Position numbers and translations under genes: made by a program. A DNA stretch of 64,000 bases from Clostridiaceae bacterium (GTDB taxonomy: Bacteria; Bacillota; Clostridia; DUPQ01): positions 13,454-77,453 of the forward strand of contig DUPQ01000070.1 in the NCBI GenBank assembly GCA_012838235.1, written 5' to 3'. The notes under the pieces are model-generated. The model saw only the letters and a program-made list of their open reading frames with translations, was not told the DNA's origin and ran no database searches. This document shows positions 1,260 through 28,516 of this stretch, one piece after another (position 1 is the stretch's first letter; every line of letters begins with the position of its first letter).

Positions 1260-2474
1260 TTATCTTACCGGTGCTTTGGAATAAACAGTTAAATAGATAA
1301 TGTCTTTTGTTCTGAAACTTGTTTTCTCAATCGGTACACAGCTGTTTTTAACCCGACCCGGATCATCATACAATATTTCATATTGTCCTTTTGAATTAAT
1401 TCGGTATCCTATTGCTACCATTGCGTGCGTTCGTGTTCCATTCTTAAACTGAACAAAAACACCGCCATGATCTCTGTCTTTTTCATTCAAATATTGGATG
1501 ATTCTTAGGATTTTGTCATCATCGGACTTTCCTTCTACTTTTTCCGAGTTGTTTTTCTTAACTACTACTTTAAATCCCAACTGCTTTGAGTACTTATTAT
1601 TATAGTAATCAAAAACACGTCCTCTGTATAGATATGTGGTATTTCCATTTGCTTTATAGGTTTCATTCGGATTAGTCTCAAAACCTAAGTTGGACAGAAT
1701 CATACAACTACTTGTTATGTAGCATCCGGTACGTTTTAATTGGGGATAATTGATTTGGCTGAAATATGTGTGATTGGGTAGGATATATGCTTTTTGAACT
1801 TTTATCACACGTGTTGCCTTGTAGCCTTCCGCACAAGCCTCCACAACAATGGAGTCTCCCATTTTTGCAGAGGGTTTTACTATAATCACTCCTGTGCTTG
1901 TGTCTATAGTGACATTATTACCGTTACTTTTTGCAATTCTCCATTTGACAGGTGCTTTGTAAGGCGAGTTGGATTTAACAACTGCGGTTAATGTAGTTTT
2001 TTGACCTACAATAATTGTGCTTGGTCCTTTTATTTCAATACTTTTGATTGAAATGGGAGCGACCGTAAACTTAACGGTGTTTCCTTTCTGTCTGCGAGTA
2101 CCGTCGGAATTATGTGCTGTTACACTGATTGAATAGTTGCATCCGGGAGTCAAATCCGTAATCTCATATGTGCATTTCGGTGCATATATTTTTTTATTCA
2201 TATTAACACATATTTTTTTTGTAAGATTTAACAGTTCAATTGTGTAGTAAGCAGCTTTCCTGTCTGCTTGCCATTTTACCACTACTTTATCCGAAGGCTG
2301 ATATCTTTGCTTATCGGTAGAACATTTTACTGCAGGGGATATTTGTGCCGTTACTTTGGAATAGACCTTATTAGAGTTCCAACGGGGCATAATTGCTGCA
2401 TCTACATTCAGGTAGGATAAGCATAATACAAGAACTATCAGTGTGCAGATTGTTTGTTTAATAATCGTTTTCAT
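1260..2474 (-). CDS. Secreted multidomain protein: signal peptide, FN3-like, Big_2-like Ig domain, C-terminal papain/C39-like cysteine peptidase
   Basis: ORF track, 404 aa. Signal peptide MKTIIKQTICTLIVLVLCLSYLNVDAA. FN3-like KVVVKWQADRKAAYYTIELL...YSISVTAHNSDG. Big_2-like IKSIEIKGPSTIIVGQKTTLTAVV...VTIDTSTGVIIVKP. C-terminal peptidase-like region with candidate Cys (RTGCYITSSCMIL) and His (THAMVAIGY). AGGAGG lies 7 nt upstream of the ATG. Confidence 0.75.
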   Translation of the reverse strand: MKTIIKQTICTLIVLVLCLSYLNVDAAIMPRWNSNKVYSKVTAQISPAVKCSTDKQRYQPSDKVVVKWQADRKAAYYTIELLNLTKKICVNMNKKIYAPKCTYEITDLTPGCNYSISVTAHNSDGTRRQKGNTVKFTVAPISIKSIEIKGPSTIIVGQKTTLTAVVKSNSPYKAPVKWRIAKSNGNNVTIDTSTGVIIVKPSAKMGDSIVVEACAEGYKATRVIKVQKAYILPNHTYFSQINYPQLKRTGCYITSSCMILSNLGFETNPNETYKANGNTTYLYRGRVFDYYNNKYSKQLGFKVVVKKNNSEKVEGKSDDDKILRIIQYLNEKDRDHGGVFVQFKNGTRTHAMVAIGYRINSKGQYEILYDDPGRVKNSCVPIEKTSFRTKDIIYLTVYSKAPVR

Positions 2475-2568
2475 TTTCTTTCCTCCTTGTAATTTTAAAA
2501 ATATTTTGTCTTGAAGAACTGTTGCTCCGTATCTTCACATTTAGGATAGCATAAATAGTTTGTCAGCT

Positions 2569-2590
2569 TCCTAACAAAATCCTAACAAAA
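2569..2590 (-). promoter_or_regulatory. Tandem 11-bp direct repeat (TTTTGTTAGGA x2 read on the minus strand), candidate wHTH operator upstream of the peptidase gene
   Basis: The plus strand reads TCCTAACAAAATCCTAACAAAA. Its reverse complement is identical over 22 bp to 6512-6533. It lies 95 bp upstream of the ATG at 2474 and is co-oriented with that gene. Confidence 0.65.
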
Positions 2591-2682
2591 TCAACTCATC
2601 AATTATTGGTCAGATCAAAGAAACGACATCTAAAAGAGAGTTTGATTATATGGATGTGAAATAGCGTTTTTTATTATAAAAT

Positions 2683-3687
2683 CTACGAAAATCGGTTAAC
2701 AAAGTCATATATTGCATCAATAGTAGCCTTAATTTCCTGTAAATAATTAACCGGTTGGTTCAGTAACTTCGGGGTACTTGCAGAATCCTGATTTGGAATA
2801 TATCCGACTGTGTCAAAATTGACTGTGTGTTTTATTGCAAATGACAAAGCTCGAACTTGCTGATATGGACAATAAATCTGTGATGTGCAATTAATGATAT
2901 TTGAATGCGGTAGGACATTTAATCGTTTGAAAAAAAAGTCAAAGCAATCTACACTGTTGGCTCTTCTTATATCCGGTTCCGAAGAAGGAGCGGAAATTGC
3001 ATAAATATCATTGTTTCCATATTTTTCTGAGTACTTTCTTATTGTCCAATTTAAGTTATAGTTATCTTTCCTTTCCGTTTCTTCCGTATATGAACGAATG
3101 TCAAATGTAGTTGATAAACCCGATGCTATTGCTTCAAATTCAAAAACGGCATCTTTGGCAGGTGTGTTGCTATAAAAAGTAATCTCCTGTTCCGATAAAG
3201 GTCTCATTGTGGATAATGCAATAACTTTTGATTCAAAGTTATGAGTGTCTATAAGGGTTTTTGCTAATTCGCATCTTTTAAAGTTGGATATTAGAGCTCC
3301 ACCGAGAGGAAGAATGTAGTCGGGAGAATTTAGTACTGTGTCAGTAATTCCGATAAGTCCTAATTTTACCGATGCTTCAAGTACTAATTTACTGTATTTT
3401 TCCACTATCTCGTCATTCTTCAACAACCACCTTGCGGCTTCACCCTCATTGGTCATCGCTTCGGATTGTTTTTTGCGAAAATCCCATACAGCTACAAAAC
3501 TTTTCAGCCATTTTAAGTAATCATAATACGGTAAAGAAAGCGGCGGATTCTCGTTGTTATTATAAATCTTAATCAACTCAACTAACTCAGGTGTCATTAA
3601 CCAGTTATAAAATTCGTGGTGAATAATAGTTTTTATTCGTTCAGTTTCAGATATATCCGAAGGTGGGCAAAGGATACGATTATTCAT
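2683..3687 (-). CDS. Hypothetical protein, weakly DUF218/YdcF-like; translationally coupled to the STAND regulator
   Basis: ORF track, 334 aa. The start overlaps the stop of the upstream STAND gene by 8 nt. Only weak motif resemblance to DUF218 (YILPLGGA, IRRANSVDCFDFF, INCTSQIYCPYQQVRAL). The family assignment is tentative. Confidence 0.55.
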   Translation of the reverse strand: MNNRILCPPSDISETERIKTIIHHEFYNWLMTPELVELIKIYNNNENPPLSLPYYDYLKWLKSFVAVWDFRKKQSEAMTNEGEAARWLLKNDEIVEKYSKLVLEASVKLGLIGITDTVLNSPDYILPLGGALISNFKRCELAKTLIDTHNFESKVIALSTMRPLSEQEITFYSNTPAKDAVFEFEAIASGLSTTFDIRSYTEETERKDNYNLNWTIRKYSEKYGNNDIYAISAPSSEPDIRRANSVDCFDFFFKRLNVLPHSNIINCTSQIYCPYQQVRALSFAIKHTVNFDTVGYIPNQDSASTPKLLNQPVNYLQEIKATIDAIYDFVNRFS

Positions 3688-6289
3688 TACTACTTGTTTC
3701 CCTTATTTTAATCATACTCATTTCAGTCACTTTATCAATCATATCATAACAAATGGAAATAAACGACATATCAATACCGGGAATGGATGCTGCAACATCA
3801 ATAGTTTCAGTAATATTGGTCAATATACTCTTATCTACAATATTTCTGTTTTCTAAAATGGAAAGTAAATCTCTTGTTTTTCCTATACTGTCTTCAACTT
3901 CTTTTGTAAAAACTCCTACATCATGCATGTAAATAATACCTGCTTTAATTTTATCGGAAAAAAACGCAAGAGAATCCTTTATGCTTTCAAAAGGAGGAGT
4001 GACATCCTTTTTTTGCTCGCAAAGGTCAAAGTATAAATTTGTTAACATAATACCTGCACCTATAAGTCTGTTATTGGATATTATTGTTTCAATATGTTGA
4101 GCGGTATTTACTTTTTCAAAGATTGATGCGGATATCAGCTGGTTTTCATATGACAGCTTAAGATAGTTGTATTTTTCCTCATCCATACAGGACCTGGATA
4201 TATGAAAATAGTCGGATCCGATGTTTCTATAGGCAGTTGCCAGCAGATTCAAATTTACACTGTTAGGTTCAGATTGTACCAATGCTTCCCTGTATACTTT
4301 GGTTTTTTTATGATAGTCTAAAGCTTTAATATAATCCCTGCTTGCATAATGGTATGCTCCTAAATTGCCATTTATCACTGTAAGTAATCTATCACATTTA
4401 TTACTTATACTCTCCGGCTGGTTTAATTTGTTTTTTATACTTTCTGTTATTTGTTCCGCACAGCTTATTGCTTTGTATGCAATGGAAAGTCTGTCTTTTG
4501 CACTTGTATACTGTAGGACCGCATAACCGGCTTGATTCAAGCAACTTGCCTTTTCCAACTTATCATCTTCACTTAGAGCATCCATATCAAGCGAATCAAG
4601 CAACTCGATAGCATGTTTTCCGTATTTATACCCTAGCTGATTATTTGTAATAATACGATACACATTGGCTATACATGCTGTCAGTTTTGCATAAGATAAT
4701 GGTATTTGTCCGATTTTTTTTAATCCCGAATACAATGAGGTGGCAAGGGTTAAATTATTCGTTAAATCGGAGTCATAGGTGGCATTATCAATAATGTCGG
4801 TAATGTAAGAGACATATTTTTCTATATAGTTGAAGTCAAATCTATCTATTTTGGTTAATATTATCTCTCTGATAAACGGATGAATGGATATAGTTCCGTA
4901 ATGATTAAATGCATAATAACCGTTAAGCAGTTTATCAAATGCCGCTTTTAGTTGCTCTCTGTTTTCCATATCAAAAGAATTATCAAAGAAAGTATCATAG
5001 TTAAATCCGCTTATCGGTAATAAGGCTAAATTATACAATAGCTGCAGATCAATATCCGTATCGGTGATTCCGGAAATTTTGAATAAGCTGTAATAAAGGT
5101 TAATAATATTATCTTTTTTGTGCTCACCATCTTTAAATACGGAAACTGTGTCGTCGAGACTTTTTGTATTATCTGATGCAAGGGCTACAATGATATCATA
5201 CGGATCTTTTATCTGAGATAACTTTGCAACAAGAGTAACTAAATATGTGTTTCTCATCAATCGGTTATCTATTAAGTCGGTGATTGATTCAATAAAATCA
5301 TGGTACTCTCTATCGTGCTTTTGCATAAGATACTCTGCAATTTTTTTTGCAATGATATCCTGTGCTATATCGGAATCCTTTTCTTTTATATCAAACATGA
5401 TTTTAAAGAATAACTGTACTAGAATATCCATCTCAAGCGGCTTTATTTCCGTTTGCTCTATTGCATAACAATTCGACAAATTAGTTTTAGAAGTCATTAA
5501 AATGTGACATCCTGTATTGATTAAATCCATATAACACTCGGATTTGTCGGACAACTCGGATAAATCCTGATTATTTGAATAATCAATGTTGTCTATAATT
5601 AACAGGGAAGGTTTTTCTAATCCTTTAAGCAAGGATATGATAACCTTATAACGGTTATCTCTTTTGTTCAGTGCATTACACGGTAGAGAAATTATTGTAT
5701 CCTTTAAACCGCTATCTGAATAAGTTGTGAATATTATGTTTTTATAACCGTCTGTTATACATGAGTTTGCATATTCTTTTGCCAATTCCGTTTTTCCCAT
5801 ACCTCTCTCGCCGGATATGGCATGGACAGGACAACGTACAAAAGCTTCTTTATGCAACTTCTGTATCATGTTTTTTCTGTTTTCATAGAAAGGGCAGTTA
5901 TAGAAAGGAGTTATAGTATTATCGTTTTTATGACTGTATGAAGGCTTAAGCGAAGGAAGAGGAAAAGAATCGGTGAGTCGGTATCCTTTGTCATCTGTTT
6001 CAATACATCTTGAAAGGATACTATTGTTCCTAAGTTGAGAAATCAATCTTTGTATTTGTACTAAATTGTTATCACATCTACGAGGATCATATTCATATCC
6101 GAATAATTTCATATGTATATCATTTATACTTACAGTATGATTTAGATTTTGAACAAGAAGGGACAATGTATCCATATGTCTACGACTGAACTTTTTTTGT
6201 TCTCCGTTCTCGACAACACATTTGCCGTCAAAATCAATATAACAATTCTCATTTATATCATGTTTTCCTCTAGATTCTTTATTGCTCAT
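3680..6289 (-). CDS. STAND NTPase regulator: N-terminal OmpR/PhoB-type winged helix, NB-ARC-like P-loop, C-terminal TPR-like repeats (SARP/AfsR-like architecture)
   Basis: ORF track, 871 aa from TTG 6295. ATG at 6289 has GGAGGTG 8 nt upstream. wHTH: FSRRHMDTLSLLVQNLNHTVSINDIHMKLFGYEYDPRRCDNNLVQIQRLISQLRNN...DDKGYRLT. Walker A GERGMGKTELAKEYA. Walker B LLIIDNID. Long helical-repeat C-terminus (e.g. GAYHYASRDYIKALDYHKK). Confidence 0.85.
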   Translation of the reverse strand: MSNKESRGKHDINENCYIDFDGKCVVENGEQKKFSRRHMDTLSLLVQNLNHTVSINDIHMKLFGYEYDPRRCDNNLVQIQRLISQLRNNSILSRCIETDDKGYRLTDSFPLPSLKPSYSHKNDNTITPFYNCPFYENRKNMIQKLHKEAFVRCPVHAISGERGMGKTELAKEYANSCITDGYKNIIFTTYSDSGLKDTIISLPCNALNKRDNRYKVIISLLKGLEKPSLLIIDNIDYSNNQDLSELSDKSECYMDLINTGCHILMTSKTNLSNCYAIEQTEIKPLEMDILVQLFFKIMFDIKEKDSDIAQDIIAKKIAEYLMQKHDREYHDFIESITDLIDNRLMRNTYLVTLVAKLSQIKDPYDIIVALASDNTKSLDDTVSVFKDGEHKKDNIINLYYSLFKISGITDTDIDLQLLYNLALLPISGFNYDTFFDNSFDMENREQLKAAFDKLLNGYYAFNHYGTISIHPFIREIILTKIDRFDFNYIEKYVSYITDIIDNATYDSDLTNNLTLATSLYSGLKKIGQIPLSYAKLTACIANVYRIITNNQLGYKYGKHAIELLDSLDMDALSEDDKLEKASCLNQAGYAVLQYTSAKDRLSIAYKAISCAEQITESIKNKLNQPESISNKCDRLLTVINGNLGAYHYASRDYIKALDYHKKTKVYREALVQSEPNSVNLNLLATAYRNIGSDYFHISRSCMDEEKYNYLKLSYENQLISASIFEKVNTAQHIETIISNNRLIGAGIMLTNLYFDLCEQKKDVTPPFESIKDSLAFFSDKIKAGIIYMHDVGVFTKEVEDSIGKTRDLLSILENRNIVDKSILTNITETIDVAASIPGIDMSFISICYDMIDKVTEMSMIKIRETSSNE

Positions 6290-6511
6290 CTTCAAATCAC
6301 CTCCACTACATAAAAAAGCAAAATATACACATTTTCGAAAGCAGTTGCTAAATTCATAAGTAGCTAATTATTCTGGGTGGGTATATACATTGGAACAGCA
6401 TATCAATGTTCACGAAATACAACTGTGTTTAATTATACTCGATATAAGCTGAGCTAACAACAGATTTGTTGCAATGATTGAACACAGTAGCACAATATTC
6501 AGGATACCTTA

Positions 6512-6533
6512 TTTTGTTAGGATTTTGTTAGGA
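6512..6533 (+). promoter_or_regulatory. Tandem 11-bp direct repeat TTTTGTTAGGA x2, candidate wHTH operator upstream of the 13-gene operon
   Basis: 22 bp identical to the reverse complement of 2569-2590. Lies 93 bp upstream of the ClpP ATG (6626) in the divergent intergenic region shared with the STAND regulator. Confidence 0.65.
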
Positions 6534-6625
6534 ACCTTGTGTAAAAAATGTGGCAAAATTCAATTAGACAATCACTTGGTAAATTATGGGTGGATAACAT
6601 CATATTTTACGGAAAGGAATAAAAA

Positions 6626-7219
6626 ATGAATGAAAGATTTATACCCACAATAATAACGAATATTAACGGTGTTGAACAGATAACCGATTCAGTCAATATT
6701 GACTTTATGAGAAGAAGAATATATTTGGTCGGTGAAATAGACAGTACATCCTCTACAGCGATGCTGTCAATGCTCGGATATTTATCAAACAAGTCAAGTG
6801 ATGATATAGAATTATTCATAAACAGCCCCGGAGGAGCTATACAGGACGGTCTTGCCATATATGACACAATCAAATACGGGGTTAATTGTGATGTTGTAAC
6901 AGTTGCGTACGGAAGAGCCGCAAGTATGGGAGCTTTTCTTTTGGCTTGCGGGAAATCAGGGAAGCGCTATGCTTTACCCAATGCCGAAATAATGATTCAT
7001 CAACCTTTGGGTAGGGTTCAAGGGCAGGCAACGGATATAATATTGGCTGCTGATAATATTAAAAAGACCAAAGAACATATCGCATCTATTTTTGCCGGAA
7101 AGTGTAATAAGCCGGTAGATATACTGCTCAAAGATATGGAGAGAGATTATGTTATGACAAGTAAGGAAGCATTGTCATACGGATTGATTGACAATATAGG
7201 GTTTCCTAAATCGGTATAG
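6626..7219 (+). CDS. clpP: ClpP-family serine protease (paralogue, first gene of the operon)
   Basis: 197 aa. IYLVGEID...FINSPGGAIQDGLAIYDTI...GRAASMGAFLLACG (Ser), EIMIHQPLG (His), ERDYVMTSKEALSYGLID (Asp). GGAAAGGA RBS present. Confidence 0.9.
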   Translation: MNERFIPTIITNINGVEQITDSVNIDFMRRRIYLVGEIDSTSSTAMLSMLGYLSNKSSDDIELFINSPGGAIQDGLAIYDTIKYGVNCDVVTVAYGRAASMGAFLLACGKSGKRYALPNAEIMIHQPLGRVQGQATDIILAADNIKKTKEHIASIFAGKCNKPVDILLKDMERDYVMTSKEALSYGLIDNIGFPKSV

Positions 7220-7235
7220 AGAGGGGGTGAAAAAA

Positions 7236-7985
7236 ATGAGGGAGACATTGCTCTACGGCCATGAAGAAATAAAGAAAGCAATAAATGAAATATGCGTGAA
7301 CAGCAAAGCATATAGTATCGGAAGAGTCCGACCGAGCAACTATATTATCCATCTTGATAGGGGTAACGGTCGTACAACTCTTGCAAGATATATTACCGAG
7401 AAGTTTTATAAACACAGTATTATAAAGTTTAGTAGCAAAGACTTGTTTTTGGAAATTGATTTTGACGGTACTTTGAAACAGCTTCAAGAGTCTTTTGGTT
7501 ATATCAGTTTAGCAGCTTGTTATGCAAATAGTTATGAAGGGGTTCTGTTTTTTGGTATTGATTCATTAGGAGATTATATACATGAAACTCAAGTGGAATT
7601 ATTTTTGGATAATATTGCAAAAGTCAGTGAAACAGCAACATTGATTTTTTATGTTCCCGAGAATCCGTCTAGAAGCATCAGTCAACTGATAGATAAGATT
7701 CGTGATGTATTGAAAGACACTGTTCTAATAGAAAAAAGCGTATACACTGCAACTGAATTGACCTTAATAGTTGAGTCGATGCTAGAAAAGAGGGGAATTG
7801 AAATTGATCAAAAAGCTCAATTTCATGAACAATTAGTTAATCTGATTGCACATATGGAACTTAAAACAATTGATGATGTAAAAGAATTATCAAAAAGAAT
7901 AATACTCTTAACGGATTATAGCTCATTAATATCGAGAGTTGGCAGTTCTCAGTTGAGAAAAATGAGACATGATGTTTTGTCTTGA
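7236..7985 (+). CDS. Degenerate SpoVK/CbxX/EccA-like AAA+ domain protein (probable pseudo-ATPase)
   Basis: The track ORF starts at GTG 7227. ATG 7236 follows GAGGGGG by 8 nt. HLDRGNGRTTLARYI resembles the Walker A GNPGTGKTTVAR but has Lys replaced by Arg. GVLFFGIDSL sits where Walker B GVLFIDEA would be, so the DE is lost. Confidence 0.65.
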   Translation: MRETLLYGHEEIKKAINEICVNSKAYSIGRVRPSNYIIHLDRGNGRTTLARYITEKFYKHSIIKFSSKDLFLEIDFDGTLKQLQESFGYISLAACYANSYEGVLFFGIDSLGDYIHETQVELFLDNIAKVSETATLIFYVPENPSRSISQLIDKIRDVLKDTVLIEKSVYTATELTLIVESMLEKRGIEIDQKAQFHEQLVNLIAHMELKTIDDVKELSKRIILLTDYSSLISRVGSSQLRKMRHDVLS

Positions 7986-8003
7986 TGTTTGGAGGAAAAT
8001 AAG

Positions 8004-9863
8004 ATGATGAACCGCTATTCAAATGAGTACGAGATAGAAAGGAGTACAAGCCGGTTGGATAAAGAATCCTCTACCTGTGGTCCTGTTGTATATTATAACG
8101 GTAAGCCATATGTATATGATGGAGAAAGCCATGTTCTCTATATCGGTAAAAGTGGTAAGGGTAAAAGTAGATGCGGAACAATCTCTACAGTGCTATCAGT
8201 GCAGCAAGCCGGTGAATCCTACATTGTATCCGATCCTAAAGGGGAGATATACAATGCAACTTATTGTTTTCTGAAAGATAAATATATTGTTCATGTAATT
8301 GATTTCAGAAATATTTTAGAAAGTGAAACTTGGAATCCTTTAGAACTTGCATACAAACTATATTCTACCGGTGATAAGCATAAGATGGAAATAGCCTATG
8401 AATTGATTGTAGAATTGGCATTTTTATTATTTGCGGATTCTGTAGTTGCTGATCCGTTTTGGGCTCAAAGTGCACGTAGCTTATTTATCGGTATTGTCTA
8501 TTTACTTTTCAGTTTTGCTCCTGCTGATCAAATAAATATGAAGTCGGTATATATGCTTGCTGTTTTAGGAGAACAAAGGTTAGGGTCAACAAACTATTTG
8601 CGTCATCTTATTGATTTGTTGCCTAAAGACACAACTGCATCGATGAACCTGAATTCGTATATGGCTGCGCCTAATGAAACAAGAGGAAGTATAAAATGTG
8701 TTTTCTTAGATGGTATGGCAATATTTGCAAGAAGCGAAGGTCTTATTGAAATGTTGAGTTCTGATGGCTTGAACATTGCAGAAATGAATGGTGAAAAACC
8801 GGTTGCAATATATATTATTTTGCCGGATGAATCAATAATCTATGATAGGCTTTGCGGTGTGTTGATTAGTCAGTTAATGAAACACTATATGCGTCTTGCG
8901 CAAGATGAATACAAAGGCAGATTGCCGATACGTATGCATCTGATACTGGAGGAGCTTGCAAGTGTGGGAAGTTCCATATCCGGGTTGCCGGACTTAATGG
9001 CTACATCTCGAAGCAGAAATATTAAAATATATATTGTGCTTCAGTCATTATCTCAGTTGGACGATTTATATGGAAAAAGTAATGCATCTACAATACTTGC
9101 CAATATCGGTATCATCATTGCCTTTAGTACTAACGATTGGAAGACCTTAGAGGAGTTATCACAAAAATGCGGAGATAAGGAAATAGATTTCGGTACAAGA
9201 ATAGTTACAACAAGCCTTATTAAGCCGGAGCAGCTTGCTGGTATGGATGTAAAGCAAGCATTGGTAATGATAGACGGAAGTGTCAAGTATATAACTAAAT
9301 TACCGTTCTATGATGAAATATTTGACTTTAGCGAGTGGAAAGAACCGGCGCAATTAAAACATAAAAAAGAAAATAATCCGAAATACTTTGATATTACTAA
9401 ATATGTTCAAGAGGGTGGTGAAACTGATTTAAGAGTACCGATGATGTTGCAGAATGAAGATATATTCAGAACTTTCAACAAGCCCAAAATTAATGAAGAA
9501 ATTAAACTTCAAGAGTTAATAACGAAGATTGATAAAGCAATTGAGAGATTAGAGGGAACAGAAGAAATAGAGGAAATAGAGGAATTAAAAGAAATAGAGA
9601 AATTAATGGAATTAGATATGCAGGAGATGATAGATGAAGAGGATATTCCTGATAGCTATGATATAATACTCTATCGTTGCAATAGTTGTGAAAATGTTAT
9701 TGCTTTGGTTGTTGCCAAAATACTGGATGTAAGTTACAATGAAGCAGTCAATAAATTAAAAGAAGAGCCTCAGATATTTAAATTTGAAACAAGAATTGAA
9801 GCTGAAAGAGCAAAAGCTGATATACGCAATGTGGGTGGGGATGTTTATAATCTATTCGATTAA
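8004..9863 (+). CDS. Soluble VirD4/TraG-like (type IV coupling protein family) P-loop ATPase with acidic linker and C-terminal ribosomal L7/L12-CTD-like domain
   Basis: Track start is TTG 7989. ATG 8004 follows GGAGGA. Walker A YIGKSGKGKSRCG. SDPKGEIY, DPFWAQSARSLF, LILEELASVG (Walker B region), IVLQSLSQLDDLYG. No N-terminal TM helices. Acidic EEIEEIEELKEIEKLMELDMQEMIDEEDIP linker. C-terminus YDIILYRCNSCENVIALVVAKILDVSYNEAVNKLKEEPQIFKFETRIEAERAKADIRNVGGDV. Confidence 0.8.
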   Translation: MMNRYSNEYEIERSTSRLDKESSTCGPVVYYNGKPYVYDGESHVLYIGKSGKGKSRCGTISTVLSVQQAGESYIVSDPKGEIYNATYCFLKDKYIVHVIDFRNILESETWNPLELAYKLYSTGDKHKMEIAYELIVELAFLLFADSVVADPFWAQSARSLFIGIVYLLFSFAPADQINMKSVYMLAVLGEQRLGSTNYLRHLIDLLPKDTTASMNLNSYMAAPNETRGSIKCVFLDGMAIFARSEGLIEMLSSDGLNIAEMNGEKPVAIYIILPDESIIYDRLCGVLISQLMKHYMRLAQDEYKGRLPIRMHLILEELASVGSSISGLPDLMATSRSRNIKIYIVLQSLSQLDDLYGKSNASTILANIGIIIAFSTNDWKTLEELSQKCGDKEIDFGTRIVTTSLIKPEQLAGMDVKQALVMIDGSVKYITKLPFYDEIFDFSEWKEPAQLKHKKENNPKYFDITKYVQEGGETDLRVPMMLQNEDIFRTFNKPKINEEIKLQELITKIDKAIERLEGTEEIEEIEELKEIEKLMELDMQEMIDEEDIPDSYDIILYRCNSCENVIALVVAKILDVSYNEAVNKLKEEPQIFKFETRIEAERAKADIRNVGGDVYNLFD

Positions 9864-9901
9864 TAATAATAAGGATAATTGTATAAAGGAGGGAATGGTT
9901 T

Positions 9902-11215
9902 ATGAGTGGCTTTACTATTGGAGAATATGAATTAGCTAGAAGGGAGAAAGAGTGGTTAAGACTGATAGAGGAAGAAAACCGCAAAAGATTAAAAGAGGCT
10001 ACCGACAGATACAGGTCATGTTTGGCTAATGTTAAATCGGTTAAACACAGAATATCTGCTCATATGGTGGAACAGGAGAAAACACTGGAAGCATATTCTT
10101 ATATGAAGCAACCGTTTGACGAGCTTAAAAGTATAAAAAAGAAATATTGCGAGAAAATTGAACGACTTTGTACTGGCAATATCCCTTCCGAGGTTGTTGA
10201 GATAAACGAGTTATCTGACAAGTTGGAGGAGGATATAGGGGTAATAAGTGCGGAGTTTTTCAAAAAAACGGAAAAAGTGGAAAAAGCAATCAGAGAATAT
10301 ATGAGAATACATGCGGACAATATAGCTACTAAGCAAGTATCAGTTGAATTGGACAGGTTTTCAAAGAGAATTAAAGAAGCTGTCAGAGTGGATTATGCCG
10401 ACTTTATTGAACCTTCTTCAAATAAGACGGAGGAGGATTTGGTAAGCAAGTTTGCTGCTGTATTGCAATTAGCGGAAGAGTGCTTCAATATTTCACATAT
10501 GGATTCCGTCAAATCCAATGTAATTAACATCGTAACAACTCTGAACTCCGTTTCCGATAAGACTTATGATGAAAAAAAGGTTGTGTTGGATCAAATTTAC
10601 AGTAAATTAGTTTCGATCAAGAAGGAGGCAATAGCAAAGAGTAAAAGGTTTGATGCACTGTACACTCAATACCTGGCGGAATGTATTTTAGCTGGCAGTA
10701 AGCCGATGGTTGATTACAGTTTTACATCACTCGAAGCTTTGTCTGACGAGCTTAAATCGGTTAAGAAGAGAGCGGAAGAAAAAGCGGAACACAAATATAT
10801 AACCGAACAGATAAATGATGTTATGCGTAGTATGGGCTACAAATCCATAGACAGTCAGCTTCTTGAGTTACCCAAGGTCGGAACAAGACAGTTGTTCAGA
10901 ATAAAGGAAAATGTTGCACTGAATGTATATGCTTCCGAGAACAACGAAGTGAATACACAGCTTATTATTATCGGGGACAGTAAGAATATAACCGAAGAAG
11001 ATTACGAACAGTTTGAAGAAGAACAAAGAAGCTTCTGCAAGCGCAATCCGGAGTTAGTAAGAAGATTATCGGAAAGAGGTATTTTGATTAAGAACGGGAA
11101 GATAAAAGAGCAAGACAAAAATGATTTGGTTAAAGAAAAAATAGTGACCGATGCGAAGAGTGAAAATAGAAAAAGTAGAAAGAGAAAAATGGAAATAAGG
11201 ATGGAGAGGGAATAA
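9902..11215 (+). CDS. Coiled-coil protein, unknown function
   Basis: 437 aa, AAGGAGGG RBS. Charged heptad-like sequence over most of its length, Lys/Arg-rich tail. No family recognised. Confidence 0.7.
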   Translation: MSGFTIGEYELARREKEWLRLIEEENRKRLKEATDRYRSCLANVKSVKHRISAHMVEQEKTLEAYSYMKQPFDELKSIKKKYCEKIERLCTGNIPSEVVEINELSDKLEEDIGVISAEFFKKTEKVEKAIREYMRIHADNIATKQVSVELDRFSKRIKEAVRVDYADFIEPSSNKTEEDLVSKFAAVLQLAEECFNISHMDSVKSNVINIVTTLNSVSDKTYDEKKVVLDQIYSKLVSIKKEAIAKSKRFDALYTQYLAECILAGSKPMVDYSFTSLEALSDELKSVKKRAEEKAEHKYITEQINDVMRSMGYKSIDSQLLELPKVGTRQLFRIKENVALNVYASENNEVNTQLIIIGDSKNITEEDYEQFEEEQRSFCKRNPELVRRLSERGILIKNGKIKEQDKNDLVKEKIVTDAKSENRKSRKRKMEIRMERE

Positions 11216-11797
11216 ATGAAAGCATGTGATATATGCGGTGCGTCAAATGATGATAATTCAAGGATATGTAATGTTTGTGGTGGAAGGTTTGCAGAAAAAT
11301 CTGTTTCTTATGTTTACTATGTAAGGTGTAACACATGCAATGCCGATATTTTAGTGCAGAATGAAAAACAGGATAAGGTTTTCTGCAAAACCTGTGATAA
11401 AGAACTTGTGATAGACGGAATAGTACATTCGGTATCCAGGAGAGAAACGATTGCAGAAGAAGAACTATATGTAGAACCTACATTGATTTTGGAAGAGGTA
11501 AAATCCAAGCATAAATTCATCATCCCCAAAGAAGGCGGAGTATTTGGCAGATACGGACAATTTGATCCACACTTTTTTCAAGATGAACGTTTTTCCAGGG
11601 TATCAAGGCGTCATATTGTAATAAGTTATGACAGTGACAGTAATAAATGGTCGGTAAAACCCAACAGTGAGACCAATGACACATATATAGACGGAAGGAC
11701 ATTTAAACCGTCAATGAACAGTATTGCCGTTGAAATCAGAGATGGTCAGATGATAGGGCTTGCCGACATATATTTTAAAGTTATAATAAACGGGTAG
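11216..11797 (+). CDS. Double zinc-ribbon plus FHA domain protein
   Basis: 193 aa. CDIC...CNVC and CNTC...CKTC pairs. FHA signature FGRYGQ (GR), SRRHIVI (SxxH), NDTYIDG, and a C-terminal beta-strand region. The start abuts the upstream stop. Confidence 0.85.
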   Translation: MKACDICGASNDDNSRICNVCGGRFAEKSVSYVYYVRCNTCNADILVQNEKQDKVFCKTCDKELVIDGIVHSVSRRETIAEEELYVEPTLILEEVKSKHKFIIPKEGGVFGRYGQFDPHFFQDERFSRVSRRHIVISYDSDSNKWSVKPNSETNDTYIDGRTFKPSMNSIAVEIRDGQMIGLADIYFKVIING

Positions 11798-11802
11798 TAC
11801 AG

Positions 11803-12384
11803 ATGAATGTTGACAGAATCGCTTTTCCAATCAAATCACTCGGACCGGGTAACCGGATAGCAATTTGGACTGCAGGATGTAAAAAGCATTGCTATAATTG
11901 CATAACGCCAGAATTGTGGGAGCCCGATCCGATGAAAGAAATATCCGTACAAAGCCTTGTGCATATTATCACAACTGTTGTTTCCGATAATGGTATTACT
12001 GTTGACGGTATTACCATAACGGGAGGAGACCCTTTTGAACAGCTGGAGGACCTGTTGAACTTACTTCCTTATGTAAAAAATATGGTAAAAGACATTTTGG
12101 TTTATACAGGTTATGAGTACTCGCAATTTAAGAAAACTCTTAGCGAGTGGAAAATAGAATGCATAGAAAGTAATATTTCAGTTTTAATTGATGGGCAATA
12201 TGTAGATAAATTGAACGATAACAAAAGTGCATTGATAGGCTCAACCAATCAGAATATTATATTTTTTGACGAGAAACTTAAATCTAAATATTCGGAATAT
12301 ATGGAAAAAGGCAGAAGCATAGAGAATATAATACACGGGAAAAAGGTTTTTTCTGTAGGTATACATAATAGAGAGGAGAAATAA
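11803..12384 (+). CDS. NrdG-like radical-SAM activating enzyme (4Fe-4S CX3CX2C)
   Basis: 193 aa. The N-terminus MNVDRIAFPIKSLGPGNRIAIWTAGCKKHCYNCITPELW matches the NrdG/PflA-type activase pattern (SxxDGPGxR..F..GCxxxCxxCxN). GGDPFEQ SAM-binding motif. Confidence 0.8.
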   Translation: MNVDRIAFPIKSLGPGNRIAIWTAGCKKHCYNCITPELWEPDPMKEISVQSLVHIITTVVSDNGITVDGITITGGDPFEQLEDLLNLLPYVKNMVKDILVYTGYEYSQFKKTLSEWKIECIESNISVLIDGQYVDKLNDNKSALIGSTNQNIIFFDEKLKSKYSEYMEKGRSIENIIHGKKVFSVGIHNREEK

Positions 12385-12385
12385 A

Positions 12386-14251
12386 TTGGATAATCAATCA
12401 GTAAAGCCCAAATGGCAAAAGGAGATAGAGCTTTTCAGAGGTATAAAAAGTGCATATATAATTGAAGGCAATATAAATGACAACTATCCTATCTGCGAAG
12501 AGGGAGGTAGTGTATATTTTGCTAACCTTGATAAGACAATAATAAAGTTGTTTGATAAGGATGTATATGATTTCTGTTTCTGTAATCCTGCGGTAGGGTT
12601 ATATGATCCTCTTAACAGAAGTTTACAAAAAGAAACCGTTGAAGCATTGATAGGCAAGTTTAATAATAATGAATTATGTTCCCGTTATGATGATATATTC
12701 GGTCATGTTTATATGATTAGAGAAATAGGTTTACTTGCCGATATTATTAAAAAAGCATTGGTAGGAACAACAAACAATAACGAAGGAGAAAGAAAACCCG
12801 TTGCAGTCGTAGTAAATTTCGCATCAAAGTTTTTTTCGGACGTATCCAATATAAATAATGACGAGATGAAGGCATTGTTGAACATATTATTAGCTTCATT
12901 GAATTCCAGATATTACCGGAACAATGTCAATACATTGATACTGGTTGTGGAGAAATTCAATGACCTTCCCACATGGTTCTACTACAATAATCCCAAGGTA
13001 AAGACCGTTACTATACCCAATCCCGACAGGTTGGTCAGAACTGTGTATATCGAGAAAGAGTTCACCGAGTTTAACAGTATAGAAAAGGCGAAGGATGTAA
13101 TTGATAAGCTTGTAAGCGCCACGGAAGGATTAAAACTGATTGAGCTTAGAGAATTAAGACAACTTCACATGAAGAATAATGATGACATATCCAATATTAA
13201 TGAAACGGTGTCTGCATATAAATATGGTATTAAGGATAATTTATGGCAAAGTTTCAATAAAGGAACAATAGAGAGACTGGAAAGATATCTTAAAGAAAGA
13301 ATAATCGGTCAGGACTATGCATTGAATAAAGCAATAACGATAATAAAGCGCGCGGTGATGGGAATGACAGGTTTGCAACATTCATCTGCAGATAATAAAC
13401 CTCGCGGTGTACTGTTCTTAGCCGGTCCTACCGGTACCGGAAAAACGGAGCTGGCAAAAGCTATAACTGTAATCCTTTTCGGTGATGAGAGAAACTGTAT
13501 AAGATTTGACATGGCTGAATTCAGTGAACCACATTCGGATCAGAAACTAATCGGTGCACCTCCTGGTTATGTTGGTTATGAAGCGGGAGGGCAGCTGACT
13601 AACGAAGTGAGAAAAAGACCATATGCAACGGTACTATTTGATGAAATGGATAAAGCATGTCCGACAATTATGGATAAATTCTTAGAAATACTGGAAGATG
13701 GCAGGTTGACAGACGGACAAGGCAATACGGTATATTTCTCAGGGACACTGATAATTTTTACCAGTAACTACGGATATACGGAAATGAGAATTGATGAAAA
13801 CGGTAACGAGAAAAGAGAATGGATTATTAAACCCGGCGAGTTACCCTATGAAGAGGTAAGGAAAAAAGTGGTTGATTCTATTAAAAAATCCAAAGCGATG
13901 AAACCGGAAATAATAAACAGGATAGGGGAACACAACATAATTGTATTTGATTTTATCAGCAAAGAGGCCGCAGAAAAGATAATTAAAAAACAGATAAAAC
14001 AAGTGAACGAAGACTGCAAGAAGCAAAAGGGAATCTCAATGCATGTTTTAGATGAATGCTATGAGTTATTAAATAAGAAATCTCGGTCCGATGATGTGAT
14101 GATTTATGGAGGCAGGGGTATAGGAACATTGGTAGAAAATGAATACATCAACCCTCTTTCCAATTATTTGTTTGATAATGATTTTACCCATGAAGTAAAA
14201 ATAACTGCATTTGTAAAAGGGGATAAACTGGACTTCAGAGAGGAGGTATAG
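12386..14251 (+). CDS. Clp/Hsp100-family AAA+ ATPase (ClpB/ClpV-like D2) with degenerate N-terminal D1-like half
   Basis: 621 aa, TTG start 7 nt after GAGAGGAG. D2: IIGQDYALNKAI...GVLFLAGPTGTGKTELAKA...LIGAPPGYVGYEAGGQLTNEVRKRPYATVLFDEMDKA...LEDGRLTDGQGNTVYFSGTLIIFTSN...YGGRGIGTLVE (sensor 2). The N-terminal half has IIEGNINDNY at the Walker A position and VVVNFASKF at the Walker B position. Confidence 0.85.
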   Translation: MDNQSVKPKWQKEIELFRGIKSAYIIEGNINDNYPICEEGGSVYFANLDKTIIKLFDKDVYDFCFCNPAVGLYDPLNRSLQKETVEALIGKFNNNELCSRYDDIFGHVYMIREIGLLADIIKKALVGTTNNNEGERKPVAVVVNFASKFFSDVSNINNDEMKALLNILLASLNSRYYRNNVNTLILVVEKFNDLPTWFYYNNPKVKTVTIPNPDRLVRTVYIEKEFTEFNSIEKAKDVIDKLVSATEGLKLIELRELRQLHMKNNDDISNINETVSAYKYGIKDNLWQSFNKGTIERLERYLKERIIGQDYALNKAITIIKRAVMGMTGLQHSSADNKPRGVLFLAGPTGTGKTELAKAITVILFGDERNCIRFDMAEFSEPHSDQKLIGAPPGYVGYEAGGQLTNEVRKRPYATVLFDEMDKACPTIMDKFLEILEDGRLTDGQGNTVYFSGTLIIFTSNYGYTEMRIDENGNEKREWIIKPGELPYEEVRKKVVDSIKKSKAMKPEIINRIGEHNIIVFDFISKEAAEKIIKKQIKQVNEDCKKQKGISMHVLDECYELLNKKSRSDDVMIYGGRGIGTLVENEYINPLSNYLFDNDFTHEVKITAFVKGDKLDFREEV

Positions 14252-14255
14252 TCAA

Positions 14256-14975
14256 GTGTTACATGTTGTTGCTATTACCGATAAAGGTCCGAGTAATGAG
14301 AAAAATGACGACTGTATATTAGTTAATAATACTGTTATAACCGAAGGATCGTTTTATGGAGAATACCGTTCCTACCTGCTTGCATCGGTTTTTGACGGTG
14401 TCGGAGGCGAGCATTACGGAGACGAGGCGGCTAAAATTGCAGCGACAGGTTTTTCAACACTTGATGTTAAAGACAGATTAAGTGAACATGTTATAGTTGA
14501 TAGGATAAAGGCGGTGAATAGGGATATTCTTGATGCACAGAGGACCGATGTTTATCACAGCAAAATGGCAACTACAATAGCAGGGGTTTATATAAGTAAT
14601 GACAGCTTCATAGCCTTTAATGTCGGTGACAGTCGGGTGTATCGCTTAAGAGGCGAGTATATGTTGCAGATATCGAAAGATCATAGATATTCGGAAAAAG
14701 TTCACACAATATACCGATACTTAGGACACCCTACCGATTACCTACCGTATACTGATATGTTTGATAACTTGTTTTTTGACAATGACATTCTTGTTATTTG
14801 TACTGATGGTATCAGCGACTTTGTTTACAACAGTGTAATCAAGCGGGAACTTATGAAAGTTGAAGACAATTATTCTTTGACGGAATGTGCAGAGGAAATA
14901 ATGAATACTGCAATTAAGGAAGGGTGTAACGATAATTTAAGTATCATATTAATAAGGAAGTGCGAAAATGACTGA
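14256..14975 (+). CDS. PP2C-family Ser/Thr phosphatase
   Basis: 239 aa, GTG start after GAGGAGG. VFDGVGGEHYGDEAA, NVGDSRVY, CTDGISD, NDNLSIILI. Confidence 0.85.
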   Translation: MLHVVAITDKGPSNEKNDDCILVNNTVITEGSFYGEYRSYLLASVFDGVGGEHYGDEAAKIAATGFSTLDVKDRLSEHVIVDRIKAVNRDILDAQRTDVYHSKMATTIAGVYISNDSFIAFNVGDSRVYRLRGEYMLQISKDHRYSEKVHTIYRYLGHPTDYLPYTDMFDNLFFDNDILVICTDGISDFVYNSVIKRELMKVEDNYSLTECAEEIMNTAIKEGCNDNLSIILIRKCEND

Positions 14976-17139
14976 TTTAGAAGTGTCTAACTGTACTAAA
15001 AAAACAAGTAGTTTAATAAATACATTAAGTTATAACGGGCCGTCTACTCCGTTAATGACCGATGTGGAATTCAAGGGAAGAAACGGAAACACCTATAAGG
15101 TCTTGTCAGACGGGTTTATTCATCAAGGCGGAGAATCTGTTTTATACAAATGTATTTGTAATAATGAGGTTTATGTTGCAAAAATACTAAATTTTTCTGT
15201 TAGCTTGAGAAATGATGAACTAAGAGGACCTGTTTTAGATTTTTTAATAAGACATTCCGGTAAAGACTCACACCTCTTGCAACTACTTGATTACGGGACA
15301 ATCAGATATAATGACGGCAGATATGATGCGCTGAGATATATTGAAATATATCCGTTCTGCCCTAAAGGTGATTTGGGAAGATTAGGGAAAATTGATTATG
15401 ATACTTTGTGTGAAAAAGTTATACCTGCTATCAACACCGCTCTTAATACTTTGCACAATGCAAATCTGGTTCATAGAGATGTAAAACCCAATAATGTGTA
15501 TGAACTGGACGGCGAAATATATCTGGGGGATTTCGGACTCTTGACAAGCAGCATCATAGAAGATGGACATAGTAATGCACATGCATACACATTAACACAA
15601 AGAGGAACTGAGGGTTATATGGCTCCAGAAATATATAAAGGTTCTGTTTATAATATTTCCGATTACTATTCGTTCGGCCAGACCATTTCCACTTTATATC
15701 ATGGAAAACATATGTATGAACACCTTATGAATAATACCGACTATATAGCAAACAGAGACATAAATCTTTCTCTTCATCGGTGTATGATGGAGGGAATTTT
15801 ATATTTAAGTTTGGAAACAAAGCACAAGGAACTAGATAAATTACTCAGAGGCTTGTTGAAGTGCAATCATGAGTTAAGGTTCGGTTATGAGCATGTTTGC
15901 AGATGGCTTACCGGAGACAAGACTCTGACCGTACCGGAAGACAGAAACATAGATCAACTGAATCCGCCATTTATGATTAATGATGTCAAATGCAGAAACA
16001 TAGAAAGCATGGTTGAACAGCTATTATTAAACTGGGATATGGCAAAGGAATACTTATACGAGGGGATAATGAAAGACTTCTTCAGTGCTCAGAATACAGA
16101 GTTAAGTATGAAAGCACTGGAAATATCAAGAAAACAGGGAAATGAATTAGTTAATAATACCGGATTAAGTCAATTTATTCATTATTTAACGGAAGGGGAA
16201 GGGATATATTGGAAAGGAAGAAAATATAACGACCATGCGGAAATTTTCAGCGATTATACAGACAATCATAGTATTAATCCCGATGTCATAGAGTTGCTTT
16301 CCTCCGGTTTTTTATCCTGGAGAATGGAAGAACTGAATAAGAAAGATAATAAATATCAAAACCAAATTGAGCTTCTTAAGAGTATTGAAAAAGAATGTTT
16401 TTGCTATAGTTCAATAGGTTATCATTATGCAAGACACAAACTAAGAGGGGAAGAAATAAGTTATTCAGATTGCCAAAATGTTGCTGAATTAATAGATTAT
16501 TTTATTGAATCATTCGGAAAAACATATTTTACTGGAGAAACATGGTTGAGAGATGATAGGTTTTATGGATTTTTAATGGCATTAGGTCATGTTAAAATTG
16601 CAACTTCTTTATTCGAGGAAGTGAGATGGGCGCAACCTGCGAATGCCATAAGAGCATTATTCGGTACTTTAGAAGTTTTGATAGAAAGAGGAAACAGCAC
16701 TTCACTTCAAACTAAAAAAGAACTTTTAAACATCTACTTGTTATATGGTCCGCGGTCCTATCTCTGCTGGATAAAAGAGAATCTTAGTTGTTACGATTTT
16801 ATGGGTATGAACGCTTTTATTTTAAAAGAGAAAATTGAGGACATTAATTTGAGCAATAAAAAAAGTCTTGCAGATATCGATTCAGCATTTAATGAATTGG
16901 CCAAAAATCTTAATCAATTTAAGCTATACTTCTGTGACAATCCTATTCTATGTAAATTAGGGATTAGTAATAAGGAAGGGAATGATATTATTTATTCAAA
17001 AAGCCTTGACGGTTATTTTTTATCCGACTTCTATGGGAATAAAGTACCGGTCGGATTTTATAAGTATATTGATGCATACAGGAGTAAAAAGAAAATAGTT
17101 AAGAATTTAAATAACTCCGAAGACCTGTTTTCCTTCTAA
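14968..17139 (+). CDS. Hanks-type Ser/Thr protein kinase with about 430-aa uncharacterised C-terminal region
   Basis: 723 aa, overlaps the PP2C gene by 8 nt. VYVAKIL (Lys), HRDVKPNNV, LGDFGL, GTEGYMAPE. No motif recognised after about residue 300. Confidence 0.9.
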   Translation: MTDLEVSNCTKKTSSLINTLSYNGPSTPLMTDVEFKGRNGNTYKVLSDGFIHQGGESVLYKCICNNEVYVAKILNFSVSLRNDELRGPVLDFLIRHSGKDSHLLQLLDYGTIRYNDGRYDALRYIEIYPFCPKGDLGRLGKIDYDTLCEKVIPAINTALNTLHNANLVHRDVKPNNVYELDGEIYLGDFGLLTSSIIEDGHSNAHAYTLTQRGTEGYMAPEIYKGSVYNISDYYSFGQTISTLYHGKHMYEHLMNNTDYIANRDINLSLHRCMMEGILYLSLETKHKELDKLLRGLLKCNHELRFGYEHVCRWLTGDKTLTVPEDRNIDQLNPPFMINDVKCRNIESMVEQLLLNWDMAKEYLYEGIMKDFFSAQNTELSMKALEISRKQGNELVNNTGLSQFIHYLTEGEGIYWKGRKYNDHAEIFSDYTDNHSINPDVIELLSSGFLSWRMEELNKKDNKYQNQIELLKSIEKECFCYSSIGYHYARHKLRGEEISYSDCQNVAELIDYFIESFGKTYFTGETWLRDDRFYGFLMALGHVKIATSLFEEVRWAQPANAIRALFGTLEVLIERGNSTSLQTKKELLNIYLLYGPRSYLCWIKENLSCYDFMGMNAFILKEKIEDINLSNKKSLADIDSAFNELAKNLNQFKLYFCDNPILCKLGISNKEGNDIIYSKSLDGYFLSDFYGNKVPVGFYKYIDAYRSKKKIVKNLNNSEDLFSF

Positions 17140-18141: not shown

Positions 18142-18253
18142 TATCTTTCATTGCGGATTTAAACTGTTTATAGATAACATTGTTTTATATATTGGTATTA
18201 AAGAAGGGAAGAAAGCAACAGTTTGTTAAACAGTCGTGAAGGAGGAATATAAT

Positions 18254-19135: not shown

Positions 19136-19159
19136 GAACTGATATATGGAGGTATATAG

Positions 19160-20215: not shown

Positions 20216-20252
20216 TTTAAGTGGATAAAATAAATATATAAGGAGTCTTGTT

Positions 20253-28465: not shown

Positions 28466-28481
28466 AAAATTGACCTCCTGC

Positions 28482-28516
28482 ATGATATAAGTTCCAATTA
28501 TTAGAACTTATATCAT
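28482..28516 (-). promoter_or_regulatory. 13-bp perfect inverted repeat immediately upstream of the ATPase RBS
   Basis: ATGATATAAGTTC-(9 nt)-GAACTTATATCAT. Candidate operator or 5-prime UTR hairpin. Confidence 0.45.

Follow-up and report, generated by a model that had tools for sequence, protein, structure and literature searches.

A predicted cytoplasmic coupling-protein ATPase with a divergent L7/L12-type tail, encoded beside ClpP in gut and rumen Clostridia

The coupling-protein ATPase and its cassette

The window analysed here is a 64,000-nucleotide stretch of contig DUPQ01000070.1 (assembly GCA_012838235.1) from a Clostridiaceae bacterium, and coordinates given without a locus label refer to it. 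On its plus strand, an open reading frame (ORF) runs from TTG 7989 or ATG 8004 to 9863 and encodes 624 or 619 amino acids (aa). A stop codon lies in frame just upstream of TTG 7989 and the preceding gene ends at 7985, so the ORF has no further N-terminal extension. Its motifs and family matches mark the product as a predicted cytoplasmic P-loop ATPase of the type IV coupling protein (T4CP) family in which the ATPase motifs are conserved, and profile and structure comparisons indicate that its tail is a real but divergent homologue of the C-terminal domain (CTD) of the ribosomal protein bL12 (L7/L12). What is new is the combination of a T4CP core and a bL12 CTD inside an apparently undescribed three-gene cassette, which also encodes ClpP and an AAA+-like protein; both parts of the fusion are of known kinds.

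The T4CP signatures that an earlier note on this DNA had picked out in the ATPase core (GKSGKGKS, SDPKGE, DPFW, LILEELASVG and IVLQSLSQL..YG) are all found in the translation, and three Pfam families match above their gathering thresholds: T4SS-DNA_transf (E 8.7e-41, aa 26–436), TraG-D_C (8e-22) and TrwB_AAD_bind (6e-15), with PF02534, PF10412 and PF12696 scoring 140.7, 55.5 and 77.9 bits against thresholds of 20.1, 20.5 and 22. The top NCBIfam model is conju_CD1115, a VirD4-like conjugal transfer family, at 213.7 bits and below its equivalog cut-off of 250. The nearest annotated conjugative relative, a CD1115-family T4CP from a conjugative Bacillus cereus plasmid, shares 26% identity with the window protein. 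Walker A occupies aa 48–55 (8145–8168), the Walker B-like motif is LILEEL, and the family alignment has invariant residues at G48, G51, G53, K54, E317, R336, S337, R338, Q347 and Q351. The region that follows the nucleotide-binding domain (NBD) is poorly conserved overall, with a mean pairwise identity of 24.5% in the family. Searching with the whole window protein gave 387 relatives.

The N-terminal transmembrane anchor of conjugative coupling proteins is absent, as the earlier note had stated. Walker A begins at aa 48, and the highest 19-residue Kyte–Doolittle value within the first ~60 aa is −0.18, with no transmembrane segment by this measure; the B. cereus plasmid protein has ~83 more N-terminal residues, which include a long hydrophobic stretch. 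The window protein thus resembles the VirD4, TraG and TrwB T4CPs in its P-loop NBD, all-alpha domain and signature motifs, and differs from them in lacking the anchor, in having no relaxase or type IV secretion system (T4SS) genes among the window ORFs scanned and in carrying Glu–Glu rather than Asp–Glu at Walker B. Its family further differs from T4CPs in being fused to an L12-CTD-like domain and in always being paired with ClpP.

That pairing is much stronger than the link to ClpP originally claimed. We collected loci from homologue contigs and a scan of GTDB genomes and compared them with the window proteins and by all-against-all clustering. A ClpP gene, a gene for a ~250-aa AAA+-like protein and the T4CP gene are adjacent, in that order and in the same orientation, in all 16 distinct loci, down to ~40% T4CP identity. 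Gene ends within the cassette abut or overlap, and the start and stop codons of the AAA+-like gene abut or overlap the T4CP gene. The hosts are gut and rumen Clostridia, namely metagenome-assembled genomes of Lachnospiraceae, Clostridiaceae, Eubacteriaceae and Peptococcaceae.

The Ser-His-Asp triad of the cassette ClpP is intact in the window and in 16 of 16 loci, and the window ClpP scores below the NCBIfam ClpP equivalog cut-offs. The second protein of the cassette, 252 aa long in the window, has no Pfam family, and a profile of it against PDB sequences gave insignificant DnaA and RuvB matches only, so its AAA+ assignment rests on structure comparison. Its AlphaFold2 (AF2) model, built from a shallow 7-sequence alignment, has a mean predicted local distance difference test (pLDDT) score of 78.6, and Foldseek places it with RFC clamp-loader subunits, RuvB, CbbX and FtsH at E ~1e-6. 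The Walker A motif lacks Lys, reading GNGRTT in the window and GNGQTT in relatives (17-homologue alignment; word-index homologue searches gave 2 and 9 matches). The protein is a probable non-catalytic adaptor or scaffold.

The cassette resembles ClpXP, and ClpAP or ClpCP with their ClpS and MecA adaptors, in combining a ClpP that looks catalytically intact with an AAA+-fold protein, an ATPase and a small domain of the ClpS fold class. Unlike in those Clp machines, the AAA+-fold partner has no Walker A Lys and no recognisable IGF loop, the presumed active ATPase is a T4CP of the RecA/FtsK–HerA type, and the small domain is of the L12 type and not the ClpS type. In PADLOC-DB v2 the cassette ClpP and the AAA+-like protein are unmatched and the T4CP has a weak, generic P-loop match (mad8, E 8e-8); we found no description of a ClpP–T4CP cassette or a T4CP–L12 fusion in the searchable literature.

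Four loci carry a small ORF (~63–110 aa) directly 5′ of ClpP (L003 8381–8590, L004 8433–8630, L014 6278–6610 and L015 2182–2373), and these ORFs share the motif hhhA.K.I.LPE. The small ORF could encode a regulator, a pro-peptide or a substrate; the corresponding spacer in the window (6296–6625) has no counterpart.

The acidic linker and the L12-like tail

Between the ATPase core and the tail, the T4CP family carries a conserved helix with the motif D[IV]D.L[IV].KIDAKIAELEAEE, which reads ELITKIDKAIERLEG in the window. The stretch after it is acidic, as the earlier note had it (20 Asp or Glu against 6 Lys or Arg over aa 501–552), and is probably flexible. The first residues of the AF2 model of the tail have low confidence (pLDDT ~60).

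The earlier note aligned the tail by eye with the L7/L12 CTD. This alignment was in the right register, but with ~18% identity between the window tail and the E. coli L12 CTD, and no match of the window tail alone (its last ~68 residues) to Pfam or PDB sequences even at E ≤ 10, it is not significant alone. Significance was obtained only through homologues. A hidden Markov model (HMM) of 75 homologue tails, from which both the window and L12 were left out, scores aa 549–614 of the window protein at 38.1 bits and the E. coli L12 CTD at 62.2 bits. A second profile, made from the window tail and 46 other tails, was run against the PDB; its top 18 matches are bL12 chains, from E 3e-16, and the sole other match, a 'CAP repeat' chain at E 1e-4, is marginal and includes no stretch that is significant individually. 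Homologue tails also reach the Pfam CTD family directly: with hmmscan, PF00542 (gathering threshold 25.9 bits) scores 26–71 bits on them, including 71.2 bits with two copies in P0030, 45.6 in P0040, 35.5 in P0011 and 33.4 in P0006, and many of the 387 T4CP relatives bear a precomputed PF00542 (Ribosomal_L12 CTD) annotation.

The tail HMM matches 82 of 121 T4CP family members, a lower bound given that some apparently tail-less members have very divergent L12-like C termini, and at least five members carry two tandem copies.

The structure model points the same way. AF2 folds aa 540–619 (pLDDT 84) in the beta-alpha-alpha-beta-alpha-beta order of the L12 CTD, and Foldseek ranks L7/L12 CTD structures first, with 1ctf at a TM-score of 0.88 and a root-mean-square deviation (rmsd) of 1.2 Å. 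ClpS structures come clearly lower (TM-score ~0.6, rmsd ~3 Å), and neither the window tail nor any scanned homologue matches the ClpS family in Pfam. The description of the tail as ClpS-like therefore stands at the level of the fold class and is ruled out as an identity.

We also considered the pre-linker helix as a counterpart of the L12 N-terminal domain and rejected it, because a profile covering the C-terminal 150 aa matches only the CTD part of bL12; the N-terminal dimerisation and L10-binding domain (Ribosomal_L12_N) is listed in no scanned homologue. The tail thus shares with bL12 its CTD fold and sequence family and its place at the end of an acidic linker, and it would be multicopy if the T4CP is hexameric. 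It differs from bL12 in that the T4CP has no N-terminal dimerisation/L10-binding domain, and in that the window copy falls below Pfam detection and has most factor-binding residues replaced. C-terminal extensions that recruit partners are known in T4CPs: the tail of F TraD binds TraM.

The bL12 CTD is the hook by which the ribosome engages EF-Tu, EF-G, IF2 and RF3. On the E. coli domain, EF-G contacts V66–V68, K70, L80 and E82 (summarised in PMC5887453); the corresponding residues of the window tail are N, V, I, L, Y and E, and among the L12 positions compared it retains only E82 and the conservative V68I. Across the 75 T4CP tails the surface is better kept, with Lys or Arg at K65 in 80%, Val or Ile at V68 in 81%, Lys or Arg at K70 in 69%, an aliphatic residue at L80 in 76% and Glu, Asp or Gln at E82 in 64%. 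In this comparison the window copy is an outlier among T4CP tails in its factor-binding surface. No other folded part of the T4CP evolves as fast as the tail, which diverges at more than twice the rate of the core (mean pairwise identity in the family 23.9% for the tail versus 52.6% for the ATPase core); divergence at this speed is what one typically sees in surfaces involved in conflict.

Related domains are widespread. Against 1.84 billion representative proteins, the tail profile gives 8,191 matches at E ≤ 1e-3, which certainly include ordinary bL12 proteins, and 716 at E ≤ 1e-10. The best 150 matches (P0130–P0279) are almost all non-ribosomal, with 2–8 copies in tandem, the largest of these proteins being 3,776 aa long. 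Ten of these 150 were scanned with Pfam and contain 3–7 PF00542 domains together with TIR, PNP_UDP_1 and pentapeptide repeats, a dynamin-like GTPase, LRV/HEAT or LRR_5. As judged by these profile matches, L12-CTD-like domains on TIR, PNP and dynamin-like proteins appear in hundreds to thousands of other proteins. In 445 non-ribosomal L12-like domains, conservation is 76% at K65, 74% at V68, 79% at K70, 64% at R73, 86% at L80, 62% at E82 and 76% at K84.

The window family is in this respect like non-ribosomal L12/ClpS conflict proteins (PMC7159879, PMC12419801), which recruit the same domain off the ribosome. L12/ClpS insertions in vWA–MoxR conflict systems have been termed 'multimerizing' (Kaur et al. 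2020, PMC7159879), and fusions of helix–turn–helix and L12/ClpS domains have been mentioned (PMC12419801); within the searchable literature, reports on non-ribosomal L12/ClpS proteins contain neither the T4CP fusion nor the ClpP cassette. Among viral structures in BFVD, the best fold matches to the tail are bL12-CTD proteins and ClpS homologues from phage proteomes, including those of crAss-like gut phages.

Genomic surroundings and related clades

The first ~24 kb of the window form an island of lower guanine–cytosine (GC) content that includes the cassette, and the distal window is chromosomal housekeeping, with genes for arginine biosynthesis, FeoB and Fe-only hydrogenase. The STAND-type NTPase gene that lies divergently upstream of ClpP (Table 1) is a candidate sensor or regulator of the cassette in the window locus. 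A divergent NB-ARC protein is found at the same position in L001 and L002, and L005 has an nSTAND3 gene after the cassette; the window STAND gene itself is not conserved in the other loci. The divergent operon to which it belongs (1260–6295, −) also encodes a protein of 334 aa, which the precomputed L006 annotation lists as Rv3785_N, and a protein with fn3 and Peptidase_C39_2 domains.

The genes that follow the T4CP, from the coiled-coil protein to the Ser/Thr kinase, are probably co-transcribed with the cassette in the window, because no terminator-like site was found on the plus strand in 6200–12500. The NrdG-like activase (193 aa) has no obvious glycyl-radical partner, the kinase (723 aa) is MAD6- and PD-T4-6-like, and the ClpB-D2-like AAA+ protein (12386–14251) matches the PADLOC models PDC-M37B (7e-29) and DolB (1e-22). 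Apart from L006, a contig that represents the window's own locus, no cassette locus has these genes; on this ground the ClpB-like protein, the kinase and the PP2C, FHA and radical-SAM proteins were rejected as conserved partners. The connection that the earlier note drew between the tail and the operon's Clp-like ATPase is not supported for the same reason, and this ATPase is probably a separate module. The whole set is a candidate second conflict system fused to the cassette. L006 itself is a metagenome contig (ENA ERZ2647914, 1.8x coverage) in which the ClpP, STAND and ClpB-like genes are split by frameshifts that most probably reflect faulty assembly, not pseudogenes.

Further along the island, 17170–21260 (+) encodes two family-less proteins (323 and 299 aa) and then two tandem PRiA4_ORF3-domain proteins (351 and 335 aa). 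At its end, 21425–23544 (+) encodes a GrpB–NUDIX fusion and a GNAT protein, and an AAA_21 (AbiEii-type) ATPase lies further on at 27365–28483 (−).

At other loci the neighbours include divergent STAND/NB-ARC proteins (one with a HamA-like N terminus), nSTAND3, CBASS-like E1 and JAB proteins together with transglutaminase, and RNA-repair genes. Directly upstream of the cassette, 4 of 16 loci carry a module of Band_7, two ~200-aa proteins, an 842-aa HerA/DUF87 ATPase and a WHH/Colicin-DNase nuclease; a ThiF E1 gene lies further upstream in L004. By these annotations, the surroundings of the cassette look variable and defence-island-like. In L001 and L002, relaxase and MobC genes lie 2.5 kb downstream of the cassette on the opposite strand (14334–15933, −). 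These two are near-identical copies of one locus and the only ones of the six Pfam-annotated loci with relaxase and MobC nearby; in this lineage the cassette may be riding on a mobilisable island.

Four loci contain a sister clade of T4CP-like proteins without a transmembrane anchor (L016, L017, L018 and L020; at ~7983–10700, 726–900 aa, 35–39% identity to the window T4CP), and none of the four has a ClpP or AAA+-like gene upstream of the T4CP. The T4CP gene of L018 precedes one for a reverse transcriptase (RVT_1); ORFs of similar size, not scanned, occupy this place in L016, L017 and L020. Two Erysipelotrichaceae loci (L022 362–2458 and L023 8037–11016) encode a short anchor-less T4CP (459–508 aa, 30% identity), with ClpP directly after it and LRR_5 proteins next. 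This is an independent T4CP–ClpP adjacency, and it lacks the AAA+-like gene.

Table 1. Features of the window and of related cassette loci (locus labels precede coordinates outside the window)
Feature	Position	Strand	Basis
ClpP paralogue, cassette gene 1	6626..7219	+	Pfam CLP_protease, E 2e-59
252-aa AAA+-fold protein with degenerate Walker A, cassette gene 2	7227..7985	+	AF2 and Foldseek, alignment
T4CP nucleotide-binding and all-alpha domain, predicted soluble (aa 1–436)	8004..9311	+	Pfam, NCBIfam, family alignment
Post-NBD region of T4CP (aa 437–497), motifs ..LP.Y.E.FD.S.W.. and FDI..YVK	9312..9494	+	Family consensus in alignment
Conserved helix, then acidic linker	9495..9656	+	Family alignment; composition
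bL12 (L7/L12) CTD-like module (aa 549–614)	9648..9845	+	Tail HMM, PDB profile, AF2 and Foldseek
871-aa STAND-type NTPase with N-terminal winged helix (Trans_reg_C, SARP/AfsR-like), divergent	3680..6295	-	Weak Pfam NB-ARC, NACHT, AAA_22, Trans_reg_C
Coiled-coil protein (437 aa), Zn-ribbon–FHA, NrdG-like radical-SAM activase, ClpB-D2-like AAA+, PP2C, Ser/Thr kinase	9902..17139	+	Pfam, NCBIfam, PADLOC
Band_7–HerA–WHH module	L004 2741-8266; L007 461-6456; L011 1454-6442; L014 482-6018		

A putative proteolytic machine and its alternatives

We tentatively read ClpP, the AAA+-like protein and the T4CP as one ATP-driven proteolytic machine with stalk-like arms, serving conflict or defence rather than DNA transfer, a reading that we regard as possible while stopping short of calling it probable. 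The three cassette proteins would assemble as a single machine in which the T4CP ring picks substrates and translocates or unfolds them into the dedicated ClpP, with the Lys-less AAA+-fold protein bridging or scaffolding the two. In a T4CP hexamer, six flexible arms would each end in an L12-like head (twelve heads in all in relatives with two tandem copies), an arrangement like the ribosomal stalk. These arms would catch a client or trigger protein, which in relatives that retain the L12 factor-binding surface would probably be a translational GTPase or a stalk-binder. Neighbouring sensors (here the STAND NTPase, possibly the kinase, phosphatase and FHA set) would activate the machine, and the resulting targeted proteolysis would lead to growth arrest or loss of an invader protein. 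This reading draws on domain and neighbourhood evidence, among it the separate T4CP–ClpP adjacency in Erysipelotrichaceae and the stalk-like residues kept in T4CP tails and in non-ribosomal repeats, and the interactions among the cassette proteins are predicted. A bolder form, which we consider unlikely as it stands, would make the cassette a new ClpP machine in which an FtsK/HerA-superfamily T4CP motor carries stalk-mimic receptors that capture translational GTPases or stalk-binding invader proteins, and would give L12-CTD repeats a general role, as stalk mimics, in sensing or targeting by bacterial immune effectors of the TIR, PNP and dynamin-like kinds.

Several observations weigh against such a machine. 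No T4CP is known to act as a protein unfoldase for a protease. The Walker B Asp is replaced by Glu (LEEL) throughout the T4CP family, so ATPase competence is assumed. By eye, neither the T4CP nor the AAA+-like consensus sequence contains an IGF/LGF-type ClpP-docking loop. About one-third of the T4CP family keeps the cassette without a recognisable tail, which makes the tail an accessory outside the core of the mechanism, and we infer the defence role of the cassette from its neighbourhood only.

The tail of the window protein adds a further difficulty. Relative to E. coli L12 it carries K65E, V66N, K70L, R73A, L80Y, K81N and K84V, and this loss of basic factor-binding residues weakens the case for binding of translational GTPases by the window copy; because the canonical basic residues are replaced, its client has probably changed from the canonical one. 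The mimicry or recruitment of translational GTPases suggested in the earlier note is thus plausible for the family, in which the surface is partly kept, and weak for the window protein.

In a decoy or guard arrangement, the L12-like tail would be a bait that imitates the stalk, and the T4CP and ClpP would be triggered when a phage or toxin protein directed at binding or modifying bL12 hits this bait. The fast divergence of the tail fits this, as do the L12-like repeats on TIR, PNP and similar classic effectors of defence, a setting in which such domains would ordinarily be read as sensors. Phages, including crAss-like ones, carry their own bL12-CTD proteins, which would make the stalk a contested structure, and Foldseek also retrieves 8phj, a complex of the CRISPR-associated Cami1 with the 70S ribosome, through its bL12 chain; Cami1 engages the ribosomal stalk. 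However, a bait should keep the surface of the target that it imitates, the window copy has lost most of the conserved surface residues, and no candidate invader ligand is known. We rate the arrangement as improbable, and sequence alone does not separate it from the receptor role that the proteolytic machine would give to the tail.

The tail could instead be a multimerisation or autoregulatory module only, cross-linking rings or plugging the ATPase, with no link to translation and an unrelated client. The 'multimerizing' label given to L12/ClpS insertions in vWA–MoxR systems (PMC7159879), the dispensability of the tail in about one-third of the family and the absence of factor-binding basic residues from the window copy are consistent with such a module. 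It would, however, hardly explain why the factor-binding surface is strongly kept in non-ribosomal L12-like repeats. In addition, bL12 dimerises through its N-terminal domain, which is absent from the T4CP. We doubt this explanation about as much as the decoy.

Distinctly less likely, in our view, is a nucleic-acid model in which the T4CP senses or pumps invading DNA, or captures an attached pilot protein (a relaxase or terminal protein) that ClpP then destroys, as a barrier to plasmid or phage entry. T4CPs naturally recognise relaxase–DNA substrates, TrwB_AAD_bind, which models a DNA-binding domain, matches the window protein, and the sister clade pairs a T4CP lacking the anchor with a reverse transcriptase (L018). 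Against this, the model leaves the L12-like tail and the AAA+-like partner unexplained, and the conserved core contains no nuclease.

The least likely reading, and a very improbable one, is an ordinary coupling protein left in a degraded or mobilisable integrated element with ClpP as incidental cargo: the CD1115 VirD4-like family as best NCBIfam model, the relaxase and MobC genes near one related locus and the lower GC of the island relative to the rest of the window would fit it, but the match of 213.7 against 250 bits, the 26% identity to plasmid T4CPs, the absence of the anchor seen in the conjugative relative and a synteny with ClpP and the AAA+-like gene that holds in all 16 loci, despite divergence to ~40% identity and with no T4SS genes, all speak against it. 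Relaxase, VirB4 and pilus genes are likewise absent among the window ORFs scanned (those of at least 100 aa in 1–32 kb and the ten largest beyond). The earlier note's statement that no conjugation genes lie nearby thus holds for these ORFs, but would not be strictly true of every related locus, given L001 and L002.

If the proteolytic machine is real, conjugative coupling ATPases would turn out to have been co-opted as soluble motors of non-conjugative systems, working beside ClpP here and beside reverse transcriptases in the sister clade. A T4CP that feeds ClpP would be a non-AAA+ partner for a well-studied protease family. The bL12 CTD is reused away from the ribosome on a large scale, with its surface often preserved in the top-scoring repeat proteins examined, and our analysis suggests that the stalk/GTPase interface has been underrated as a target or bait in conflict between bacteria and phages. 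The cassette and the L12-like repeats provide testable proteins from abundant gut Clostridia.

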